A program made the position numbers and the translations under genes. The notes below the pieces were generated by a model. It was not told where the DNA came from. It did no database searches and saw only the letters and a list, made by a program, of their open reading frames with translations. From NCBI GenBank assembly GCA_965153285.1, contig OZ229119.1: a DNA stretch of 64,000 nucleotides; one strand, written 5' to 3'. How positions within the stretch are numbered: the first letter of the stretch is position 1; the number at the start of each line of letters is the position of its first letter. Below are positions 42,438 through 55,572 of the stretch, in pieces. The stretch is from Podarcis tiliguerta. Lineage: Eukaryota.

Positions 42438-44403
42438 GTGGGGGAGGGAGACAGTGCTCCTGAAGGTAGGAGTCTATCAATTGATGAAGATGATCATCCA
42501 AATGTCATAGACCAAATGGAGCAAACAGCACGCAGACCTAGTGGTGGGAGGAAAAAATCCTTAAATAAGAGACACGGGGGAATGATTAATGGACTTCAAT
42601 GTCTGTACACTAATGCGCAAAGCATGGGAAATAAACAAGATGAGCTTGAGCTCTTGGTACAGCAAACTAAATATGACATAATAGGCATCACTGAAACCTG
42701 GTGGGATAAGTCCCACGATTGAAATGTAATAATGGAGGGATACAATCTATTTCAGAGAAACAGACCAGACAAGAAAGGAGGAGGAGTGGCGTTATATGTC
42801 AGGGATGTGTATACCTGTGAAGAGATCCAAGATTTAGAACCTCAAAGCCAAAGTGAGAGCATTTGGGTCAAAATTACGGGAGAGAAGAATAACAGCGACC
42901 TCATTGTGGGAGTTTACTATAGATCCCCAAGCCAAATGGAGGACATAGATGATGCCTTCCTGGAACAGATGGCCAAGCATGCAAAAGGAAGGGAGATAGT
43001 AGTAATGGGGGACTTCAATTACCCGGATATTTGTTGGATGTCAAACTCAGCCAAGAGCATAAGGTCAAACAGATTCCTCACTGGCCTTGCAGACAACTTC
43101 ATTGACCAGAAAGTGGGAGAAGCAACAAGAGGAACAGCCATTTTAGATCTGGTCCTAACCAATGTTGATGACCTGGTTAGTGGGGTAGAAGTGGAAGGAT
43201 CACTAGGCGCGAGTGATCATGCTCTTCTGAAGTTTACTATACAGCGGAAAGGAGCAGCCAAGCATACTAGGACTCAATTTCTTGACTTTAAGAAAGCCGA
43301 CTTCATAAAACTTAGGGAAGTGCTGAGTGAGATCCCATGGACAGTAATACTAAAAGGAGAGGGAGTTCATGATGGCTGGGAGTTTGTTAAGAGGGAGATA
43401 GTAAAAGCACAACTTCAGGCAATACCAATGAGACGGAAACATGGAAGGTGCCTAAAGATGCCAGGGTGGCTATCTAAAGAACTTTTAACTGAGTTAAGAT
43501 TAAAAAAGGATGTGTACAAAAAATGGAAAAGGGGGGAAACCACCAAAGAGGAATTCAAACAAATAGCCAGCACGTGTAGACACAAAGTCAGAAAAGCTAA
43601 AGCACAGAATGAACTCAGGCTTGCTAGAGAGGTTAAAAGCAACAAAAAAGGCTTTTATGGGTATGTTCGTAGCAAAAGGAAGAACAAAGAAACAGTGGGG
43701 TCACTCAGAGGAGATGGTGAAATGCAAACAGGGGACACAGAAAGGGCTGAACTCCTCAATGCCTTCTTTGCCTCAGTCTTCTCCGATAAAGAAAACAATG
43801 CCCGACCTGAAGAATTTGGAGCAAATGATTCAGCAGAGGAAACACAGCCCAGAATAACTAAGGAGATAGTACAAGAATACTTGGCTAGTTTAGATGTATT
43901 CAAGTCTCTAGGGCCAGATGAACTGCATCCAAGAGTATGAAAAGAACTGGCAGATGTGATCTCAGAACCACTGGCAGTCATCTTTGAGAATTCCTGGAGA
44001 ACAGGCGAAGTCCCGGCAGACTGGAGGAGGGCAAATGGTGTCCCTATTTTCAAAAAGGGGGAAAGAGAGGACCCAAATAATTACCGCCCAGTCAGTCTGA
44101 CATCAATACCAGGGAAGATTCTGAAGCAGATCATTAAGCAAACAGTCTGTGAGCACCTAGAAAGGAATGCTGTGATCACCAATAGTCAGCATGGATTTCT
44201 GAAAAATAAGTCATGTCAGACTAACCTGATCTCGTTTTTTGACAGAATTACAAGCCTGGTAGATGAAGGGAACACAGTGGATGTAGCCTACCTTGATTTC
44301 AGCAAGGCATTTGACAAGGTGCCCCATGATATTCTTGTAAAGAAGCTGGTAAAATGCGGTCTTGACTATGCTACCACTCAGTGGATTTGTAACTGGCTGA
44401 CTG
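42438..44403 (+). pseudogene. CR1 ORF2 (APE endonuclease and N-terminal RT), two nonsense codons
   Basis: YTNAQS, GITETW, GDFNYPDI, SDH, NYRPVSLTS and YLDFSKAFD all in one frame, with TGA at 42720 and 43938. Confidence 0.93.
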
Positions 44404-45354
44404 ATTGATTGATGAAAAAGTGCTTTTCCCCCCTGAGATGCTAACTTTCTCTCTGCATGTCATTCCTTGAACAGCTTCCTGTGCCAAGATAAGGCTTGCT
44501 TTCATTGCTGTGCTCATTTTGACCAGTGTTGCGTGGAGCGAAATGCAACCAGTGGGCTGAAAAATGTCCCCCTCCTACCTCCTTGGGTTTCTGGTGTGGC
44601 CTTCTCAGATATTGGCACAACATGGGGTGTGTGTGATTTGGCTGCTGCCCTGTGCTCACCATTGTGAGGGCTGAGGGGGTGGTGGTGATGCCTCCCCAGA
44701 TGCTGCTATTGTCTGTAGGTTGACTGCAATGTCACAAAAACATTTGGCAGCTGAGCAGGTATAAATGTGGGCCAAGGCACAAGCCTCGGCAGTTGCCCTC
44801 CCCAGAGAGAAATGGGCAGCTCGGTGGCACTCAGCCCTGGTGGTCTCCTGCCCCGTGGCGGCAAGCTGGCAAGCGGAAGGAGGCAATCGCCCGGTGCTGG
44901 GATGCTGTGGAGCAAGGAGAAGGCAAGTACAAAATATACTTGCTGGTGAGATTGCTACCTGAAGGCGACTGATATTCCGCTCTGCAGCTGGTTGATGTCT
45001 GGCAATGGACCTGGCAAGGCTGCAGCTGGTGGGTGGTTGTCGGAAGAGTTTGTATTCAGGCTAGTGGATGCCGCAAGGCTACGCTGGCTGAGATGGATGC
45101 AAACTGGTTTGGAAGCCTTGTTTGTTAACAGGCAGCCAAACAGAGGAGTTGTCGGGGGGATGCTGTTGGATGGTGGCCATTCCCCTCACCTGTTTGCCTT
45201 TGCCTTACAGGGATGTCCAGAGCTGGTGAGGTTTTCCCCAAGTCCCGCCTTCAAAATCATGAAGAGAACTGCAGGACGTCCATATTAACATCGGAGAAAT
45301 GAACGTGAAATACTGGCAGTGAGCAATGGACAAGGCTGTGACGCTTTGAACAGG

Positions 45355-45730
45355 AATGGCTTCCCCTCAGGGATTCTGGGAACTGTAGGTAGTTAAGGGA
45401 ATGGAGAGTTGTTAGGGTGGTTAAGGATTAGGATTTGGGTTAAGGTTAGGGTTAGGGTTCCCTTCTTGTCAGGGAACTCTGGGAGTTGTAGCTCTAGTTA
45501 AGGGTTAAGGGTTAGGGTTAGGTTTAGAGTCAGGGGTAGTGTTAGGATTAGGGGTAGGGTTTCCTTCTTGGCAGGGAACTCTGGGAGTTGTAGCTCTGGG
45601 AGGGGAGTAGGGGGTCTCCTAACAACTCTCAGCACCCTTTTCAAACTATAGCTCCCAGATTCTTTGGGGGAAGGAGCCATGAGTGTTTAAAGCGGGTTGA
45701 TAGTGCTTTAAATGGTGTGGATGTGGCCCT
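45355..45730. mobile_element. Squamate MITE (ctgggaactgtag / ctatagctcccag type) carrying degenerate (TTAGGG)n arrays
   Basis: Inverted atggcttcccc...ggggaaggagccat termini; internal ggttagggttaggg tracts. Confidence 0.65.
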
Positions 45731-47186
45731 GGCCTCGCTCACCCCACTGCCTCTTATTATTGAGGAATCGAAAGGATTTCTCCATTCAGATCTCTCGGAA
45801 ACAGGAAGAAGAAAGACTTTGTATCTCATGCCATTTTGAAATGTCTTAACGTGAAATGCCAATAAAGGTATTTGTATTGTATTGTATTGTATTGTGATTA
45901 ACATGGGAAGTGGAATGGTAAAATGTTAATGAGGTGGACATGATACTTCTGTAAACTGGCATGTTTCTTGTGGGCGTGGAAGGAGGGACTTGTGGCCGGA
46001 CAAGCGACTTTATAAGATGTGTTTTTCCTGATGATGTGCCTGATCTTGGGTTACCCCCCTTGCAAGTGTGTATAATAAAAAGGTTTCCTAATTCACCCAT
46101 TTTGTCCAGATCACTTTATTTAAAAGGATCCAGTGAACTTAACTCAAAGGAACCAGTTTATTTATGTCTCACAAAGGGGGGGGGGACACCACAGCTGCAC
46201 ACCCACCTCCCTTCCCTGCCTGCTATCTCCCCTTCCTCCACCCCACTGGCAGTGCATCCTCCCCCCACCCCCTCCCCAAAAAGCTCGCTGTGACCCAAGA
46301 CGTTTTGCACTCACCTGAACCCTTGCAGGGAAAGGGGCAGGGCACAATGGGAAGGGGCGTGGCAACTGGGCTGCTTAAACCACGCCCCCTTTCCAACGGA
46401 AGCGGCATGGAGGGGTCAGTATCCAGCACCCCCTTCTCTGCCTTTCTTGAACTCTTTGACTTTAACCCTTAAGACTATGCAAGTGAAACAGCCACCATCC
46501 CTCCCTGAGTTTTTCAGCAAGGTCTTCCCTTTTTAGGGGGTGGGGTGAAATGTACTTTTGTTTAAACCGTGAGGAGGGAGAAAGGGAAGAATAAAGACGC
46601 AGAGTCAGCTTCCAGGACTAATGAAAAGATTGTTTAGCCTTCGACAGGCAATTCTTTGGAAATAAATCAGAGGAAGGGTTACACGCCTCAGCCTGAGTAG
46701 ACATCCATCCCAATGCACTTTGGTATCATTAGCACAAATGGAATACGCCTCTGGTATTTCTTTTCATTTAAGGTGCCCTGAGAGGGTAGGCATATTATTC
46801 AGCAGAGCTTGTATTTCCCTTTCCGACATGATGTGGGGAGAAATACCAATCTCATGACTCCATGGGTGGTTTATTCAGGGGCAGGTGGGGGGACGTTTAT
46901 ACTCTGCACTCACATTCTGCACAACTCATGAGACACTACAGAAATAAACTGCCTGCTTGGCATGAAAGAAGCTAAGCCACATGAGATGAGGCCTGATACT
47001 GGCTTCACCCCAAGTCTCTCTCCCAATCTCACAAGGCCAGGAGATGCCAAGCTATGCCCTTGTGATATTTGAGGCCATGGCACCCAGGAAGCTTCCTTCT
47101 GTGCCTGCTGTATTCTCCTTCTCTGCAGGCATTGCCACAGGTCAGGGAGAGCATTTTCTTCCCCTCATCACAACTGACAAAATGGC

Positions 47187-47538
47187 ACCACAGCACTTGG
47201 GCTTGCCGATCAGAAGGTTGGCGGTTTGAATCCGCACAACGGGGTGAGCTCCTGTTGCTCTGTCCCAGCTCCTGCCAACCTAGCGGTTCAAAAGCACGCC
47301 AGTGCAAGTAGATAAATAGGTACCGCTGCGATGGCAAGGTAAACGCCGTTTCTGTGCGCTCTGGTTTCTGTCATGGTGTTCCGTTGCGCCAGAAGCGGCT
47401 TAGTCATGCTGGCCACATGACTCGGAAAGCTGTCTGTGGACAAACACTGGCTCCCTTGGCCTGAAAGCGAGATGAGTGCCACACCCCATAGTCACCTTCA
47501 ACTGGACTTAACTGTCCAGGGGTCCTTCACCTTTTTTT
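47187..47538 (+). mobile_element. Sauria SINE
   Basis: cttgccgatcagaaggttggcggtttgaatcc...gcaagtagataaataggtacc...caggggtccttcacc. Confidence 0.92.
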
Positions 47539-47780
47539 ACACGGGGTGGGGAGGAGTGGGGGGGGGATTCAATTCAGTTCTCATTTAAATACAAACCTAC
47601 CTAATTCACACTGAAACAGTACATGGACTGAAACATAGCCATCCTTTGAAATTCACACCTCTCCAAATTTTTCATTGCAGTTCTCCAGCCAAGTAATGTG
47701 TACAAAAATGCATATGCTAGGATAAAGTGTCTACCACAATGCAAATAATAACATAAACAAATGTGTATATTGAAGTGTAT

Positions 47781-47964
47781 GGGGTGTTAGGGGAGGAGTA
47801 GTACTTCTGGTAGCGGACACGTCATGCTTCTTTTGAGGAAGCTTGTCCACTTTTGGTCTCCATCCTGCAGTCAGCTCTCACCTTTGGCTCCTAGAAGCTG
47901 TCAGCATGCGACAGCGGCCACACCCTGGGAACGGCTTCCACTGGCCGGCTAAACCAGGTGAGGG
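47781..47964 (+). ncRNA. HDV-like self-cleaving ribozyme (predicted)
   Basis: Hand-folded nested double pseudoknot: P1 47781-87/47920-26 with G1-U wobble, P2 47875-83/47956-64, P3 47886-88/47917-19, L3 UCCUAGAA, P1.1 CC/GG, P4 CGGC/GCCG, J4/2 CUAA with C47949. Confidence 0.75.
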
Positions 47965-48460
47965 GAGCCGATGGGTTTTAAACCCTCAGTGAGTTAGGGA
48001 CTCACTGCATGTGAAGACAAGCTCTGGCAGATTGGGTGGACGAAACCAAGAATGGGTCCAACAGTCAAGAAAGGTGTTGTAGAGGGAAGTGAGGGGCCTG
48101 TCAACCTGGGAACATAGCCGATCTAGGAGAAGGAAAGCTAACCTCTGCTGCCTTGCAGGATATCTTCAGGAAAAGAAAAGGTTAAGAAGTAAACGCCACA
48201 AAACCAGAGTGGAGTCTCCAAGATGGCTTCTTGTATGCCTCCTTCTGGCAGCCAAGCTGGTGCCAAATGTCTTATTCGGTTTTCCTTTCGACCCCATCAG
48301 TGAGGCCAAGAGAGTCTTGTCATCTGGGCAGCCCAGGACCTCCATGCACAAAGCCCAGCCTTGCACCCAGGGAGGTTACTTTGGCACTGCTAACACAGCA
48401 GATTGGCTTCATTCCCAGAGGCACACTCCACTGTCTCTCAAGACAGACGGATGCTAACTA
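47781..48460 (+). mobile_element. Non-autonomous RTE-derived retroelement (5' UTR fused to 3' end, no ORF)
   Basis: RTE 5' UTR motif gatctaggagaaggaaa; RTE-type 3' end cactccactgtctctcaagacagacggatgctaac; interrupts an older DNA transposon. Confidence 0.75.
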
Positions 48461-49935
48461 GAACATTAGGGGAAATTTGTAGTAAAATGCTGATTAATTT
48501 TCATGGGAATTTTTAGCACCCCCCTGCCCCCCTAATTGTTGTGGAAATGTGGAGGACTGAACCACATGCTAGAAACTGAATAAACCAAACAAATCTGTTT
48601 ATTCCTACATTGAAATAAGAGCCAGTTCTGTCATAATAATTATCCTGCATTTATATCACTTCTGTGTAAGAAATGGTGTGTTCATTCACATGTATGAAGA
48701 ATGCAGTGTGGCGTATCTATTTATCTTATGGGGCAGTGAACAAAGTTATATCCCACATAGGAGAATTGTCATGCATGAAAGGAGTCTTCAGTACATAACA
48801 GTCTCTGTGCGATTAGGCCTGCTTTCTGAGGCTGGAATTCTCCACTGAGTCTACAAAATCCTTTCCCAAGGGCACATTGTCTACAGTCTTATTGAGCACC
48901 TTGTTGATGAAAAATTACTAGAGCCCTTACTGCCTGGATGGCTATTCATCTATACAAAACTGGAATACATTCATACTACAAAAGTGTATTGGTTTTAAAT
49001 CAGTTAAACTCTCACAGCTTCTTCCGAAAAATATTGGGAACTGTAGTTTGGTGGAAATCCTCTTGGTGAGAAAATGATGACCTTTGTTAGTGCTGAAAAG
49101 GGAATAGGTTTTGAACTGGTTTAAGTCTATAATGCATCTATGCCATTAATAAAAACTGGCAGATTGGGGAGCCCTGACCTGTACACTTCATAGGTGAAGA
49201 AAATTTGGGGAAAGAGGTGGACTAGAAATGCAACAAACAAACAAACTTGCAATGTGGGGGCAAATGAGCACTCTCTCACGTGCACTCTGAGGTGGCGTGA
49301 GCGCTTGAGCAGATTGTCCTCATTTTTTGTTTTGTTCCTTCTAAGCTTCTTAGTGTGAAGGCAGTTATCCCATGGCTTCGTATCATGTAAGACAGATGGC
49401 CAGACCAGGAAATCAAAACCTCCCTGTTTGCTTTATGGGGCTCCTTGCCTTATTTATGTAGTTATAAGTGCCAGTTGTACTTTGCCTTCAGAGAAAAATA
49501 ATAATGAAACATTTAAAAAACTGCTCCTGGGATTGGGGAAGGAGGTGATATCACAGGTACCAGCCAATCCACACCACTGACAGCTAGTTTCTGTTGTAGA
49601 CTTGCAGACCCAGTTATTTCAGGGACTGACCCAGGTGATGAAAAAGCACATTTGAACTGACCACAGCAAGGCCTATCAATCTGTATCTGCTCCATTTCCT
49701 TAGTTTTACACAGAATTTAAGCGGTGTGCTTTATTTCAGGTTTGCTAAACCTGTGGCCATTCAAACCACTTCAAAATGATAGGCAAACATACTGCTTTCC
49801 CCCACCCCATTCCCCATGAAGTAGGAATCCCAGCCTGCATTTTTAAGATAAACAGCTCTCAGTCTGACACATAAAGACAGTTGGGTTTTGGTGCAGTCTG
49901 CAGCAATCAGTGACACACTATCCAACTGAGAAGTC

Positions 49936-49936
<1 letters not shown>

Positions 49937-49989
<53 letters not shown>

Positions 49990-49993
49990 TATT
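49937..49993. repeat. (TTA)n microsatellite
   Basis: Directly visible tandem repeat. Confidence 0.95.
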
Positions 49994-52900
49994 AGAAGAA
50001 GTTGAAAGCAGAATTAGGTGAAAGCAGAATTCCGAACAGCAAAACTAGAAAGGAATTAAAAAGAGTTAGCTATATCCATGACTTCACCAGGTAGTTGTAA
50101 GGGGAAATTAAGAGGAAGGTCTGTACGCACAGATTCTGCGTGATGAGGTCTCCTGCTTTTCCCAGGGTTCCTGGTTGTGCACAAAAGTAGTACACCTGTG
50201 CAAGCCTCTGGGGCTGATGATGTAAGGGTCGGGGCCGGGGCTGGCCTGTTAGTTGCCTGAACAGACTAAGGAGGACCAGGGTTTGGAAAGCAAGCTCAAT
50301 ATTTTGAAGGAATAAGACGAGCAAAGTCAGAGATATGGAAGAGGAGAGGATGGTATAGCAGCAGGAGAATAAGTGAAAACTCAAAACAAGAAGCACCATG
50401 TTGTGAGAGGAGAGAGGATGGAAAAGAAGGAGGAAGAGTAGCCGAGAGAAGATTATCTTCCTTATACCTTTAGTGTTCCAAGGCACTGAAGAAGAATCCA
50501 GTTGCTATGACTTCTGGCCTGTTCTTCAACTGGTCACCTTGCCCAACATCCCACCCCCTTCTCATAGTCAGAATTCTGACATACAACACACAGGAAGAGG
50601 ATGGCCCAGGTGACCAGGGAGGGATAGGGTGGGACGTGCAAGGGTTGCACCTTCTCTTTGGGATTAGAACATTTCTAGGCAAGGACTTTGCAAGCTTATT
50701 GGGAGGAGACAGCTAACTCTTTCTAACTCTTTGCCCAGTCACGTTGCGTGGAGTGACATTTGAGATGGTTTTGAAGGCTCCAGCTTGGACAAAATTGCTA
50801 AGGAAACCTTTTTTAAAAGTGTTTTGATTGGGCAGATGGAATTTTAAAAAGTGGGGCAGGGAGGAGAAAGAGAGCCTAAGGCAAAATGTGACATAAATTT
50901 GGAAATTCATAATTAGGGAAAATATCTGAAGAATGCTAAGGGAAGCTAAAAGAATATCTGTGGGAGTAGGAAAAACTATACGTTACACACCATGGTTTAA
51001 CGATCAGTTTGCCACCATTTTTACTGGAAGAGCACTCTGAAACCTAGACATTTAGCAAGTGACATTTCCTGCACCACTTATTTCCAGGAAAGACTTCACA
51101 CCAGCATAATCTGTGTGTGTGTCAGGATGCTGTTCACAACTCAGGAGCAGCTCCAGTAAAAGACTCGCCCGCTCCTGCTATGCTCCACCACAGAGTCATG
51201 TGGCCCCTGCGCATTTGAACAGAATATGCTGGGATACAAATGACTGCACAAAGCATTGCTTTTCAAACTAGGAATGTTTATGCTCGCATTGAAATGCCTT
51301 TTCTGTTTCTTTCACAACTGCTAAGACTATCAGTGATCACTGAGTTTTCCTTTCATATTTTTAAAATTATTACAGTCCAAAGCAGAGGGAGATGGGTGGG
51401 GCAAAAACAAATACCATACTGGTGAGCAATCAGAATTAAAACTGTGGTAAAACTGCTCTCAGTAAAGCTATTTCCCACGACACAACTGCATTCAGTATAA
51501 CCCACAATTGGACAGGCTGCCAATCACTTGCTGTGTCTGCTCAAAGCAGGACCACTTTGAAACCCTAAAGATCACTTAGAGCTTTCTCTGGTCAGGCTGA
51601 AAAGGAATAATCTACAAACACCTGAGAAATGAAATTTTATTTCAAGAACAGACTTCTCGCAAGATATAACTGGGGTGGGGAAGGAGTAGGGGGAGTGACG
51701 ATAGGAAAACTGGAAATAAACAAAAGTTGCACTGAACGTGTCTGAAAACGAGGCTGAAAACCCAATTGTGTGAGAGAATTATTTCTGAATAGCCCTATTC
51801 ATGAAAAAATAATTCTTTCATCACATGAATTATTAGTTGGCCTGGTCGTGTGCCAAACCTGGTTAAACCAAGTCAAGTTTACCCAAATTTCCTCCTGCAA
51901 TTTCTATTCCTTCATCCCCCTTTCGATATCAAGGAGTTGTTACATGCTCCTATGTTCCAACAATGCCCTTGCCCAATTACTGAATGTGCCCCATGTGTAA
52001 AACTGGCTGTGACTCTCTGATAAGGGTTCGCTCAGTGACAGACGCAAGTTAAATGGTTAGGCCCTGTGTGGTAAGTAAGTATTTGGGAAAGGGAAGATGC
52101 CACTTGTTTTGCAAGTTGTAAACCCAAAGACCCAATTCAATACACTATCAACTAGACTTTCCCAAGCCTGCCATGTGGAGGAGGATGGCTGAAAACAAAT
52201 AATTCAGAAGCAGCTTCTGTGCCACGGTGAGCAAAGCTGTCCACGTAGAAATTCCCTCTTCAGACCATACAACTAGTTGCTCTTTTTCTCCTTCCAAACA
52301 TTCCTTTCCTACAGCCAACAGCTTCACACACAAATCATGGAAGGTGGCCAGGAGGCCATCTTCACGGTGTGTGCAAGGCAGACATACGCAGCTTTGGGAC
52401 GAGTTAGGGGTTAAATAATGATTGGGGGAGTCCAGAACCTTTAATAGCTGCATAGAGCAATGCATTTTGGCAGGTGAATCTTGTTATGCAGGGATGAAAA
52501 TCCTCTTCTCCAGAATTATTAAAGGTATATGCTAAAAGCCCTCTAAGGGCAGGCACACTTTATCGACTTAAAACTCAGGGAGGTAGTTCCCTCCTGTACT
52601 TCAAGTTGCGTTTTACATTTCTGTATGCACCATATGATTACATTATTTGTTTTCCCTGCATTACCTGATTTGTTGCTGTGCATCTGCAACCACCCCAACC
52701 ACTAGTCTATGAAGCCACTATCTATGCATGCACAAAAGGTTTCTAAAATGTAACCTCAACTTACATTTTACAATCAGATGTAACTTGGTTTAAGAGAAAG
52801 TGCATCAACCAGCAGTATTTCTCTAGAAACTGCAAGATACGTAACAAACTGTCATGAATTCTCTGCTTCAAACGGAAGTTGTGGAAGTTTACCCAAGCCA

Positions 52901-55572
52901 CAGTAAATGGTGCACAGCCTAAGGTGGAATCTGCATACATATAAAAGATGTTCTGAAATTGCTTTTTTAAAAGTGTTTTTAAAATACATTGAATTTTCCA
53001 TAAGGCTCACCATTGCCATCTAGTGTCACATTATATATTGCACTTAAAACACCCTTAAAATGTTTTATTTTCAGCAGTATAGCTGAGTCTTTAGTTACTT
53101 ACAGAATGAGTGGCCAACATGCAACATCAATGTCATATGGGTTGCCAAAGTGGTGAAAAGAATGTGGTGGCACAGCTGGGCAGGAACAAGAGGGTTTGTG
53201 GGCCTGGCTAGGGCAATAAAAAACCTCCCCTCCCCTCTCCCCTTCTTCTCTAGAACTGCAGTGGGAGCAGACGGCACTCCTCCCTCGCCTGAGGGTGCAC
53301 AGAAACCAAGGCCAGCCCCATTGCTTGGCTAGGAATCCCACAAGTGTCTCTCCCCCCCCCCCTTACAAATGCAATATTAATGCATTAACTAACTAACCAT
53401 TTGCTGCCCTTTCATGGCACCTCACTCTGCCTAAGGCAGGGTGCTCACCTACGCTGTGAAATAACTCACCCCTTCCTTCCCACATTCCACAGTCTGATCC
53501 CTCACTGACTTACACTCAGACACAGGTGCATTTGCAACTCTAGTAAGAAAAGACACCCTTTTGAAGCAGCCCTCAGGGTTCATTACAGCTGACAACTTTT
53601 GCCCACAGAATAGGGTCAGACCCCTCAATACGTGCTGAGATATGGAAGCTAACACAAAATCAAAGGCTGTTGTGCAAGGAGCGTATTAAGCAAAACCCCT
53701 GGAAGGTTATTCAACATACGGATGTTCAAAGGAGACCTAGAATATATGGCAAAATCACCCCCAAGCAAATGCTCCTCTGAGAAACAATATACATATCAAA
53801 TTCACATCATGTAAAATCTCTGGGGAAACAAAAAGAGCTTGTTCTGGTGGAAGGGGCGGGTCTCAAACAACACCTGATATAATTAGTTCCACTGAGAATA
53901 CAGTTTGTGAAATAAAGGGTGATCAGGTAAACCAGCAGCTAATAGGAATGGTGAAAAATAAGACTCCTGTCTCCTCCCAGCTCCCTCACCCACCTGGGAA
54001 TCCTGAGCCCATTTGAGCAGAACCGCAAGCTAAGAAATCAGGTTACATTTCACTTCCAATCCTCCGGAGGATGATTATAAAAGAGGCAATTTGCCTTGTT
54101 AACTCTCCCACCTACAATCAGAGCTTAGTGGTACTGGGAAGCACTGAAGAAAATAATCTTTCAAGGGCTTGATCCACTCATGGTTAATGGGGTGAGAGGC
54201 TTTCTGGAGCTTGGCATGCAGCCACACATATCTTGATTAATTTAATGACAGTTTAGGTTTAGCAGTGTCTTTGGGTGACCGGATGCCAACAAAGAACCAA
54301 GAAGAAACAGGTCTAGTTTTTCCTCTGCTTCAGGTGAGAAGGCTCACCTGGCAAAATTTCTTCCTGTCCATAACTTACGCAAAAAGTTTGCCTTTAAAAA
54401 ACGAATTTTGGGTCCCAGCCAGTTCGAGTCCTACTCAGAGCAGACGGATTGAAATGAATGTTTGTGGCTAATGAAGGTTTATTCCTATTAATGGATGCAT
54501 AACTGAGTTGGGTACAGCATATTTTGTTAAGATATTTTGTGCTCTCTTCACTTCCCAGAGTAGCAAGACATTTTATAGAGGGACACATGAGTGTTTGTTT
54601 GGATGAGAGAGCACTGGAGACTTGGGATATCCTTGCAATACTTTATTGACAAATATATGAGTGGAGCATCGAAGAAGCAAAGAACCGCTCCTGTGGCCGG
54701 CAGCCCAATTGCGAGTCCTGCTTAGGATTTGAAGAAAGGTTCTTCACCTCCTTTCCAGACTAGACTGCAAAAAGTCTCCACCCAATATATAGGGTATTAT
54801 GATGGGTATTATATTCCAAGGCTGGAAAAGGATTCCCAGTTTTCACATAACATATTATTAACAGTCTTCTGCCAAACTATTGACACACCCTGCACCCAAG
54901 TCAGGCATTACTGTAATGTAGGAAAAGCCACAGAGTTTGGACCATTCACAGGGCTACAAAGAGAACATCGATTCCTCCTTCTTCCCCATTTTCTGCTTCC
55001 CAGCACTCATACCACGTCTATGATCCACATATGTTTATCCATACAGAAAAATGTAAAACAGAGGGGTGAAGAGGGAGAAAGAGAGAGAAATAAATAAATA
55101 ACTTAATGGGGATGATTAAGATTGGACATTGCCAATTATTCTTCCTCTTATGGCAAAAACTAAACTGAGACAGGAAGTCCTAACTTGCTGGCAATATTCC
55201 AGCCCACAGAGATCAACCAGAGGGTCTCTGATACTACACTCTAAGCATTTGGCACAACAGACGGAGTTTATTTGTAATGTAATTTATCCTGGAGGCTTCC
55301 AAGCTCCTGCTCCCAATTTTAGAAACATTAGTTTTTTCAATGGTTTACATTTTCCCACCACTTATGTGAGAACTGAAATTTTCCCCTCAGAAAAATGTGT
55401 CCCTGTGTCAGAGGGCTTTGCCCTAAAAATATCAGTAGGAAGACAAGCTAAATATAGTACAGAATCAAAACTTCAAATTCTTGAAAAGTACCCAATATAA
55501 GCAGCCGTCTAGGGAACTAATGCAAGGAAATGTCTATGCAGTCTCAGAGAGATTTTATATATGTACATTTTC

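Follow-up and report, generated by a model that had tools for sequence, protein, structure and literature searches.

We describe two covarying long-range pairings that probably brace a predicted self-cleaving, HDV-like fold at the 5' end of a retroposon in the genome of Podarcis tiliguerta; comparing related sequences, we give this reading a probability of about two in three. The retroposon lies in a stretch of 64,000 nucleotides of contig OZ229119.1 (assembly GCA_965153285.1), called the window below. The helices of the fold, the conservation of a hairpin located inside loop L3, and the covariation of both contacts are observed in alignments of the family with its relatives. Contact A links a bulge of J1/2 to L4, and contact B links the loop of the L3 hairpin to a hexamer located downstream of P2 (Table 1).

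Table 1 Positions, in the window, of the retroposon copy and of the parts of its HDV-like 5' end.
Feature	Position	Strand	Description
RTE-type non-autonomous retroposon copy	47772..48459	+	~690 nt, no ORF, decayed; (AAC)n tail at the 3' end of the family
Family P1 5' strand	47772..47778	+	First GGGGUGU; element 5' end; predicted cut just before it
Second GGGGUGU	47781..47787	+	Normally the base of the J1/2 stem; paired by RNAalifold with the 3' end of J1/2
J1/2 small hairpin	47794..47808	+	6-bp helix; 95.8% paired, 3 double-changed pairs
J1/2 bulge	47819..47824	+	Partner of L4 in contact A (5' side)
J1/2 apical hairpin	47825..47840	+	Holds 4 of the 6 CAUGCU bases; helices 3-4 of alignment A2, 3/5 pairs double-changed
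P2 5' strand	47877..47884	+	Pairs with 47955-47962; 98.4% paired, 2 double-changed pairs
P3 5' strand	47886..47888	+	Pairs with 47917-47919; invariant in 8/8 rows
L3 core octamer	47889..47896	+	U20, C21, C22, G25 and final A invariant
L3 hairpin	47897..47915	+	In relatives, stem of 5-6 bp and loop of 5-8 nt; contact B uses loop positions 47904-09 as its 5' side
Linker, P3 3', P1 3', P1.1	47916..47928	+	G linker 47916; P3 3' strand 47917-19; P1 3' strand 47920-26; P1.1 GG 47927-28
P4 with L4	47932..47947	+	97.5% paired, 3/5 pairs double-changed; 3' side of contact A at 47938-43
J4/2	47948..47954	+	Predicted catalytic C47949 (C75 equivalent)
P2 3' strand	47955..47962	+	
Downstream hexamer	48007..48012	+	3' side of contact B; 45 nt past P2, before a conserved GAAG

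The retroposon family and its relatives

The window element is homologous to other copies from position 47775 to about 48458. A DNA search of the P. tiliguerta genome gave 2,476 first-look candidates, of which 40 were scored, the other copies having 83-88% identity. With the hairpin left unspecified, a search pattern matched 257 times in this genome and a control pattern 0 times, while the 2 matches to a pattern for a second L3 type were both copies of the same retroposon family. The copies share about 700-950 nt, starting with GGGGUGU and ending with the (AAC)n tail. Target-site duplications can be recognized by eye in copies L009, L014, L022, L027, L028 and L029, and that of L028 ends immediately before the first GGGGUGU; the window copy was inspected for one, and none is clear. 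The copies differ mainly at CpG sites, and changes in one pairing partner are not correlated with changes in the other, which means that the copies are decaying neutrally and that the hairpin was already present in their ancestor. No covariation was found among them (Fisher p 0.42), as expected under neutral decay. The element also contains a 10-bp inverted repeat, 48258-48267 and 48380-48389.

The retroposon may be a bipartite LINE derivative: of the features expected of one, the tail and, in several copies, the duplications are present, and the 5' part matches relative L044 over ~270 nt. A partner LINE was not found in the P. tiliguerta genome, where the best AP-endonuclease matches belong to another family, and the AP-endonuclease elements L202-L226 of this genome have a 5' end unrelated to that of the retroposon. 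Other elements were seen along the way. One of them is another AP-endonuclease/RT family of this genome (L218, minus strand, at about 2778-2926; also L205, L209, L210, L223 and L226), whose 5' end is unrelated but allows an HDV-like fold to be drawn, J1/2 being 3 nt and L3 7 nt in length and P4 long; the candidate P1 is 7/7 in 6 of 9 loci, G.U allowed, but its first base is C. Many contigs carry stop-free frames of 1,036 amino acids, dozens in all, that are 32% identical to the L044 endonuclease; they are a young second LINE family, presumably BovB-like. In the window itself, segment 41380-44408 (+) is a broken LINE, which we take to be of CR1/L2 type; its ORF1 is GDSL-esterase-like and its ORF2 has an AP endonuclease. 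The long stem-loop of the window at 45573-45665, with weak, sub-threshold Rfam miRNA scores, is probably a short inverted repeat.

Relatives were collected by a pattern scan of metagenomes, which gave at least 118 loci; 16 were retained by eye as homologues and 102 were discarded as chance. A covariance model made from 8 rows recovered 16 of the 16 homologues, and 1 of 32 tested chance loci gave a weak partial match (L057, E 0.19). Clade A comprises 8 rows, namely L044, L058, L060, L146, L104, L129, L130 and the window retroposon family. Clade B consists of 8 loci among the matches listed, 5 of which were placed in the tree with 100/100 support. Independent lineages in the comparison number only about 10. 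Viral contigs (0 and 13 pattern matches) and prokaryote genomes (8 matches) were scanned as well, and inspection showed no homologue among the matches.

In 3 of the 3 loci scanned (L044, L104 and L067), the leader runs into a single ORF with an AP endonuclease and a reverse transcriptase. Protein relatives with this layout are found in fish, amphioxus and tapeworm; none carries a clade name, and no protein match among the relatives is named RTE. We infer the RTE affiliation from the layout of leader and ORF and from passages of Kojima 2018 (PMC5786205), which name RTE as one of the clades that have ribozymes at the 5' end and bipartite derivatives. The element 5' end of L129 has its terminal P1 strand twice, 20 nt apart, which fits 5' ends duplicated during insertion.

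The HDV-like core and the L3 hairpin

The full fold model was evaluated on a structure-blind MAFFT alignment of the 8 clade-A rows, named A2. It pairs 94.4% of 340 cells and includes 14 double-changed pairs, and 0 of 500 shuffles equal it. Unprompted, RNAalifold recovered P2, P3, P4 and the L3 hairpin, together with a further hairpin that follows P2 and a long J1/2 stem in which the bulge is left unpaired. P3 is invariant and thus gives no covariation evidence. P1.1, formed by the CC of L3 and the GG that follows P1, is present in the window copy and in 33 of the 57 copies of this genome; the GG occurs in every listed relative except L129 and L138, without covariation. In the L3 octamer, column identity is 1.0 at positions 1, 2, 3, 6 and 8 over 10 lineages, and G25 is invariant though absent from the search pattern. 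In HDV-like L3 loops, U20 and G25 form a reverse wobble, according to passages of PMC6326823 and PMC3774820. The J4/2 sequence CUAA is found in 54 of 57 copies of this genome; its second base is a U, compared with a purine in the CRRA design descriptor given for the catalytic-C motif in a passage of PMC6326823. The conservation of P3, of the P1 3' strand and of J4/2 is partly by construction, because these were part of the search patterns.

Two GGGGUGU strands could provide the 5' side of P1. The first is compensated as a P1 strand in L044, and in L058 and L074, and it is the sole pairing candidate in L044 (compensated), L058, L119 and L130. The second is the only intact candidate in L001, L067, L071 and L138. 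Among the 16 hairpin-bearing rows, 14 have a 7/7 candidate and 2 are truncated, so that a 7-bp opening helix with a purine at the cut site is found. The family most likely cuts just ahead of the first GGGGUGU (47772), which also marks the end of the element; the P1 strand that is intact in the window copy lies 9 nt further downstream.

The L3 of the family is 26-29 nt long, compared with U20-U27 for the canonical HDV L3 in a passage of PMC1874588, and the fold is therefore classed as a variant rather than as a canonical HDV-like form. A sequence-only reading of the window had expected that descriptors with a short L3 would miss it, and this is the case: at the cognate site, 0 of the 16 hairpin-bearing rows were found with L3 of at most 12 nt, and 12 of 16 with L3 of at most 35 nt. 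No HDV-type family of Rfam matched at E≤10 in window positions 44000-54000, nor in 5 relative loci. For the dispensability of U27, which the same reading had stated, no supporting passage was found in PMC9901934 or PMC1874588.

The reading had also drawn an HDV-like fold with a hairpin inside L3, and it had placed the L3 octamer, the hairpin, G47916, P3', AGCAUG, CAUGCU and ggcca/tggcc at positions that are all correct. The fold is supported by helix covariation in the clade-A alignment. The perfect 6-bp hairpin (47897-902/47910-915), with its 7-nt loop, is real, with pair probabilities of 0.97-0.99 in four folding windows. It does sit in L3 as proposed, but it is ancestral to the family and was not inserted in the window copy. 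In 20,000 draws from the window background, 0.6% of random 20-mers form a perfect 6-bp hairpin, and 5.3% of random 97-nt stretches contain a hexamer exactly complementary to one of the loop; by these chance levels the hairpin stands above chance and the AGCAUG/CAUGCU match alone does not. Folded in isolation, 47889-47919 is not unusual (z -1.36), and support for the hairpin comes from its conservation.

This conservation is broad, as had been asked of other copies. Among 57 distinct rows from 60 loci of the P. tiliguerta genome, 26 have all six hairpin pairs, 22 have five, 7 have four and 2 have none, and among the metagenome matches listed the hairpin is present in 15 of 16 relatives, L080 being the exception. 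Pairing in the 5-bp stem holds in 80 of 81 cells, and 3 of its pairs have one-sided changes; the sixth pair is variable (C-G, U-A, A-U, U.G or missing). Changes in the five core pairs are one-sided only, apart from a double change that comes from the misaligned L080 row. The covariation support for the stem is modest because the stem hardly varies: its sequence conservation is 0.96/0.85, against 0.75 for P2 and 0.45/0.57 for P4. A register in which the 5' arm is slid by 3 nt onto P3' is 97.5% paired, nearly as good. The exceptional sequence (L080:2400-2630) has a 7-nt L3 and lacks both the hairpin and the J1/2 bulge, and its P4 is rebuilt partly from a 12-nt duplication. As a single sequence, it may stand for a lineage that genuinely lacks the hairpin, or it may simply have decayed.

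Taken by itself, the copy in the window is an ordinary, decayed repeat. It keeps P3, P1.1, U20, G25, C47949, the hairpin and contact B (with one G.U), while contact A is broken, with 2 of 6 pairs. G47884U, a position that is G in 52 of 57 copies, breaks one P2 pair, and L4 at contact A reads CCAC where the family has CGAC. The first P1 strand is broken by two mismatches or by a 3-nt truncation, and the second GGGGUGU is the sole intact P1 5' strand, 7/7 with 47920-26 and a G.U first pair. With contact A, one P2 pair and the native P1 lost, the window copy is predicted to cut slowly at 47780/81 or not at all. The minimal core is retained in 9 of 57 copies of this genome. Copy L002, on the same contig about 470 kb distant, has several diagnostic changes in common with the window copy, including the P2 G-to-U change and those in L4; this likeness reflects either local duplication or a subfamily that spread with its ribozyme already weakened.

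Long-range contacts and their possible role

Contact A consists of six Watson-Crick pairs in 11 of the 13 listed relatives that hold both sides, and of 5/6 pairs in the other 2. A model alignment blind to this contact, named A3, put the clade-B hexamer into the same columns. On A3, 78 of 84 cells are paired and 4 of the 6 pairs are double-changed. None of 500 shuffles reaches the observed pairing or score, and 27 of 500 reach the number of double-changed pairs; in tree simulations without a pairing constraint, 0 of 1,500 runs match at each of three rates. Our reading of the alignment and the tree suggests about six separate double changes. The core of the contact is likely 5 bp, the sixth pair competing with local stems. 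Taken together, these comparisons argue strongly for contact A as a covarying long-range pairing, which we consider very probable.

For contact B, 47 of 48 cells are paired in clade A when the alignment is anchored on GAAG. On the plain MAFFT alignment, 46 of 48 cells are paired, a level reached by 1 of 500 shuffles. A U-A pair is replaced by C-G in L060 and L146, with a U.G intermediate in L129, and L060 and L146 together represent one clean double-change event; L058 is altered on both sides, for which two register slips may account. In 6 of 8 clade-A rows, the 6/6 partner of the loop is unique among about 200 windows. Of 27,028 six-pair helices scanned, 7 pass, of which three are contact B, two are P2, one is the J1/2 hairpin and one pairs the loop with the 5' end. 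Tree simulations without a pairing constraint matched contact B in 0 of 1,500 runs at each of three rates; without L058, the matches are 8, 2 and 0 of 1,500, which is modest against the ~27,000 helices scanned. In the 8 loci of clade B, the hairpin is kept, the loops vary and the GAAG motif is missing, with a weak, G.U-rich match at a similar distance. Contact B is thus probably a covarying pairing of moderate standing, weak or absent in clade B. The covariation agrees with the earlier guess that the hairpin makes a tertiary contact, but the covarying partner is 48007-12 and not CAUGCU.

In the mechanism that we favour, the retroposon would be co-transcribed from host promoters, and the ribozyme would cut before the first GGGGUGU by means of C47949, which would free a precise element 5' end from the host transcript. 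R2 and L1Tc ribozymes free the element 5' end in this way, according to passages of PMC6765202. Contact A would fold the J1/2 domain of ~100 nt back onto the P1-P1.1-P4 stack. Contact B would tie the P2-P3 stack to the downstream leader, and it could hold the hairpin in register so that P3 is left free. Together, the two contacts may stabilize the active fold from outside.

The main rivals are a switch timed by transcription and a role after cleavage. In the first, the hairpin region would hold the ribozyme off until the downstream hexamer, once transcribed, captures the loop; in the off-state, the 5' arm would be slid onto P3', or the loop would be paired with the P1 5' end (47776-81). The slid register has the high pairing given above but no double change. 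The loop/5'-end pairing passes the helix scan (91.7% paired, 2 double-changed pairs), but it is G.U-rich, it is mismatched at its centre in L060 and L146, two sequences in which contact B is repaired, and L058 is misaligned at its 5' end in that scan. Cleavage by a silkmoth R2 ribozyme needed downstream sequence, according to passages of PMC3774820, which is in line with such a switch. On balance we consider the switch unlikely. It is less likely still that the hairpin and the contacts serve the cleaved RNA, in 5' protection, translation initiation or protein binding, rather than catalysis. Passages of PMC6765202 and PMC11331408 describe such functions for R2 and L1Tc ribozymes, and the hairpin stem is more conserved in sequence than P2 or P4; contact A, however, connects two arms that both belong to the ribozyme, and bracing would be compatible with a role after cleavage.

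Other pairings of the hairpin region are far less probable. The AGCAUG of the loop (47903-08) is an exact complement of CAUGCU in J1/2 (47823-28) in the window copy, and the sequence-only reading had taken these as a contact. This pairing can form, with G.U allowed, in 31 of 57 copies of this genome, against 21 of 57 for contact B, and 5/6 pairs are found in L104. However, it is 6/6 only in the window family and 3-5/6 in the 7 other clade-A rows; 29 of 44 cells (65.9%) are paired, and 71 of 500 shuffles are as high. It fails as a conserved contact because four of the CAUGCU bases lie in a covarying J1/2 stem. The CA of CAUGCU resembles CpG decay (CA in 29, TG in 15 and CG in 1 of 57 copies), the match is within the 5.3% chance level, and the pairing probability in folding is 0.0, although nested folding cannot show pseudoknots. 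We regard this contact as very improbable. The reading had further proposed that GCU (47897-99) competes for P3, but this has a probability of 0.0 and would leave no GG for P1.1.

Kissing-loop dimerization is known from retroviral dimer initiation, and the loop palindrome GCAUGC, self-complementary in 4 of 8 clade-A rows, might join two RNAs likewise. This was rejected as highly improbable, since the palindrome is broken in L058, L060, L146 and L130 with contact B kept, and it is absent from clade B loops. Least credible is an incidental resemblance to HDV with a ggcca/tggcc stem (47916-20/47942-46) formed instead: nested folding of the window copy alone misses P1 and P2, a method that cannot model pseudoknots, while the stem has a probability of at most 0.02 in the folding windows, is 72.5% paired without a double change, and is equalled by 358 of 500 shuffles, and P1, P2 and P4 covary.

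Relation to known systems

Non-LTR retrotransposons of the R2, R4, L1Tc, baggins and RTE types reportedly carry HDV-like ribozymes at their 5' ends (as Ruminski is said to have described in 2011), and an HDV-like ribozyme on an RTE element is already known. Peripheral tertiary contacts accelerate the hammerhead and hairpin ribozymes. With both partners of each covarying contact named, the question of peripheral acceleration can be tested directly; constructs ending at P2 would lose contact B. The long L3 hides such ribozymes from Rfam and from short-L3 descriptors, and HDV-like ribozymes of animals may therefore be undercounted. We suggest, tentatively and with somewhat less than even confidence, that a widespread animal RTE lineage carries an HDV-like ribozyme with two extra pseudoknots, a clamp between J1/2 and L4 and an arm from the L3 hairpin to the downstream leader, both needed for fast cleavage. 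In that case peripheral tertiary contacts would activate a natural ribozyme of the HDV family, and its cleavage would be timed by the transcription of about 60 nt past the core.

The family shares with the HDV-like ribozymes of non-LTR retrotransposons the 5'-end position, P1, P1.1, P2, P3 and P4, as well as U20, G25, the C of J4/2 and a long J1/2. Unlike those ribozymes as described in passages of PMC5786205 and PMC6765202, it has a 26-29-nt L3 with a hairpin, and contacts A and B. No L3 hairpin, J1/2-L4 pairing or pairing of the loop with downstream sequence was found in the portions of the literature consulted, although the figures or supplements of Ruminski 2011 may show such RTE variants; passages of PMC6326823, PMC4870747, PMC12222951, PMC11331408, PMC9901934 and PMC1874588 contain neither the L3 hairpin nor the contacts. 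As an element, the retroposon resembles the bipartite non-autonomous RTE LINEs RTESINE1/2, WALLSI3 and Bov-A, as presented in passages of Kojima 2018 (PMC5786205), in that it is short, lacks an ORF, begins with a LINE 5' end and has a microsatellite as its tail; it differs from them in that the AP-endonuclease elements found in its own genome (L202-L226) have an unrelated 5' end.

Two systems come closest in their dependence on peripheral sequence. In silkmoth R2 elements, cleavage needs a 35-nt part of J1/2 (S. cynthia) or downstream sequence (B. mori), and duplicated P1 strands can shift the cut site, according to passages of Eickbush 2013 (PMC3774820); in these passages the partners of J1/2 and of the downstream sequence are not named and an L3 hairpin is not mentioned. 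In drz-Agam-2-1, the P1.2 domain, with a structured J1/2 and an extended P2, speeds cleavage almost 1,000-fold, and peripheral tertiary stabilization had not been proposed before for the HDV-like family, as stated in passages of Webb 2016 (PMC4908430). The structured J1/2 domain and the extended P2 are common to drz-Agam-2-1 and the window family, whereas the window family shows, unlike drz-Agam-2-1 as described in those passages, two covarying base-paired long-range contacts.
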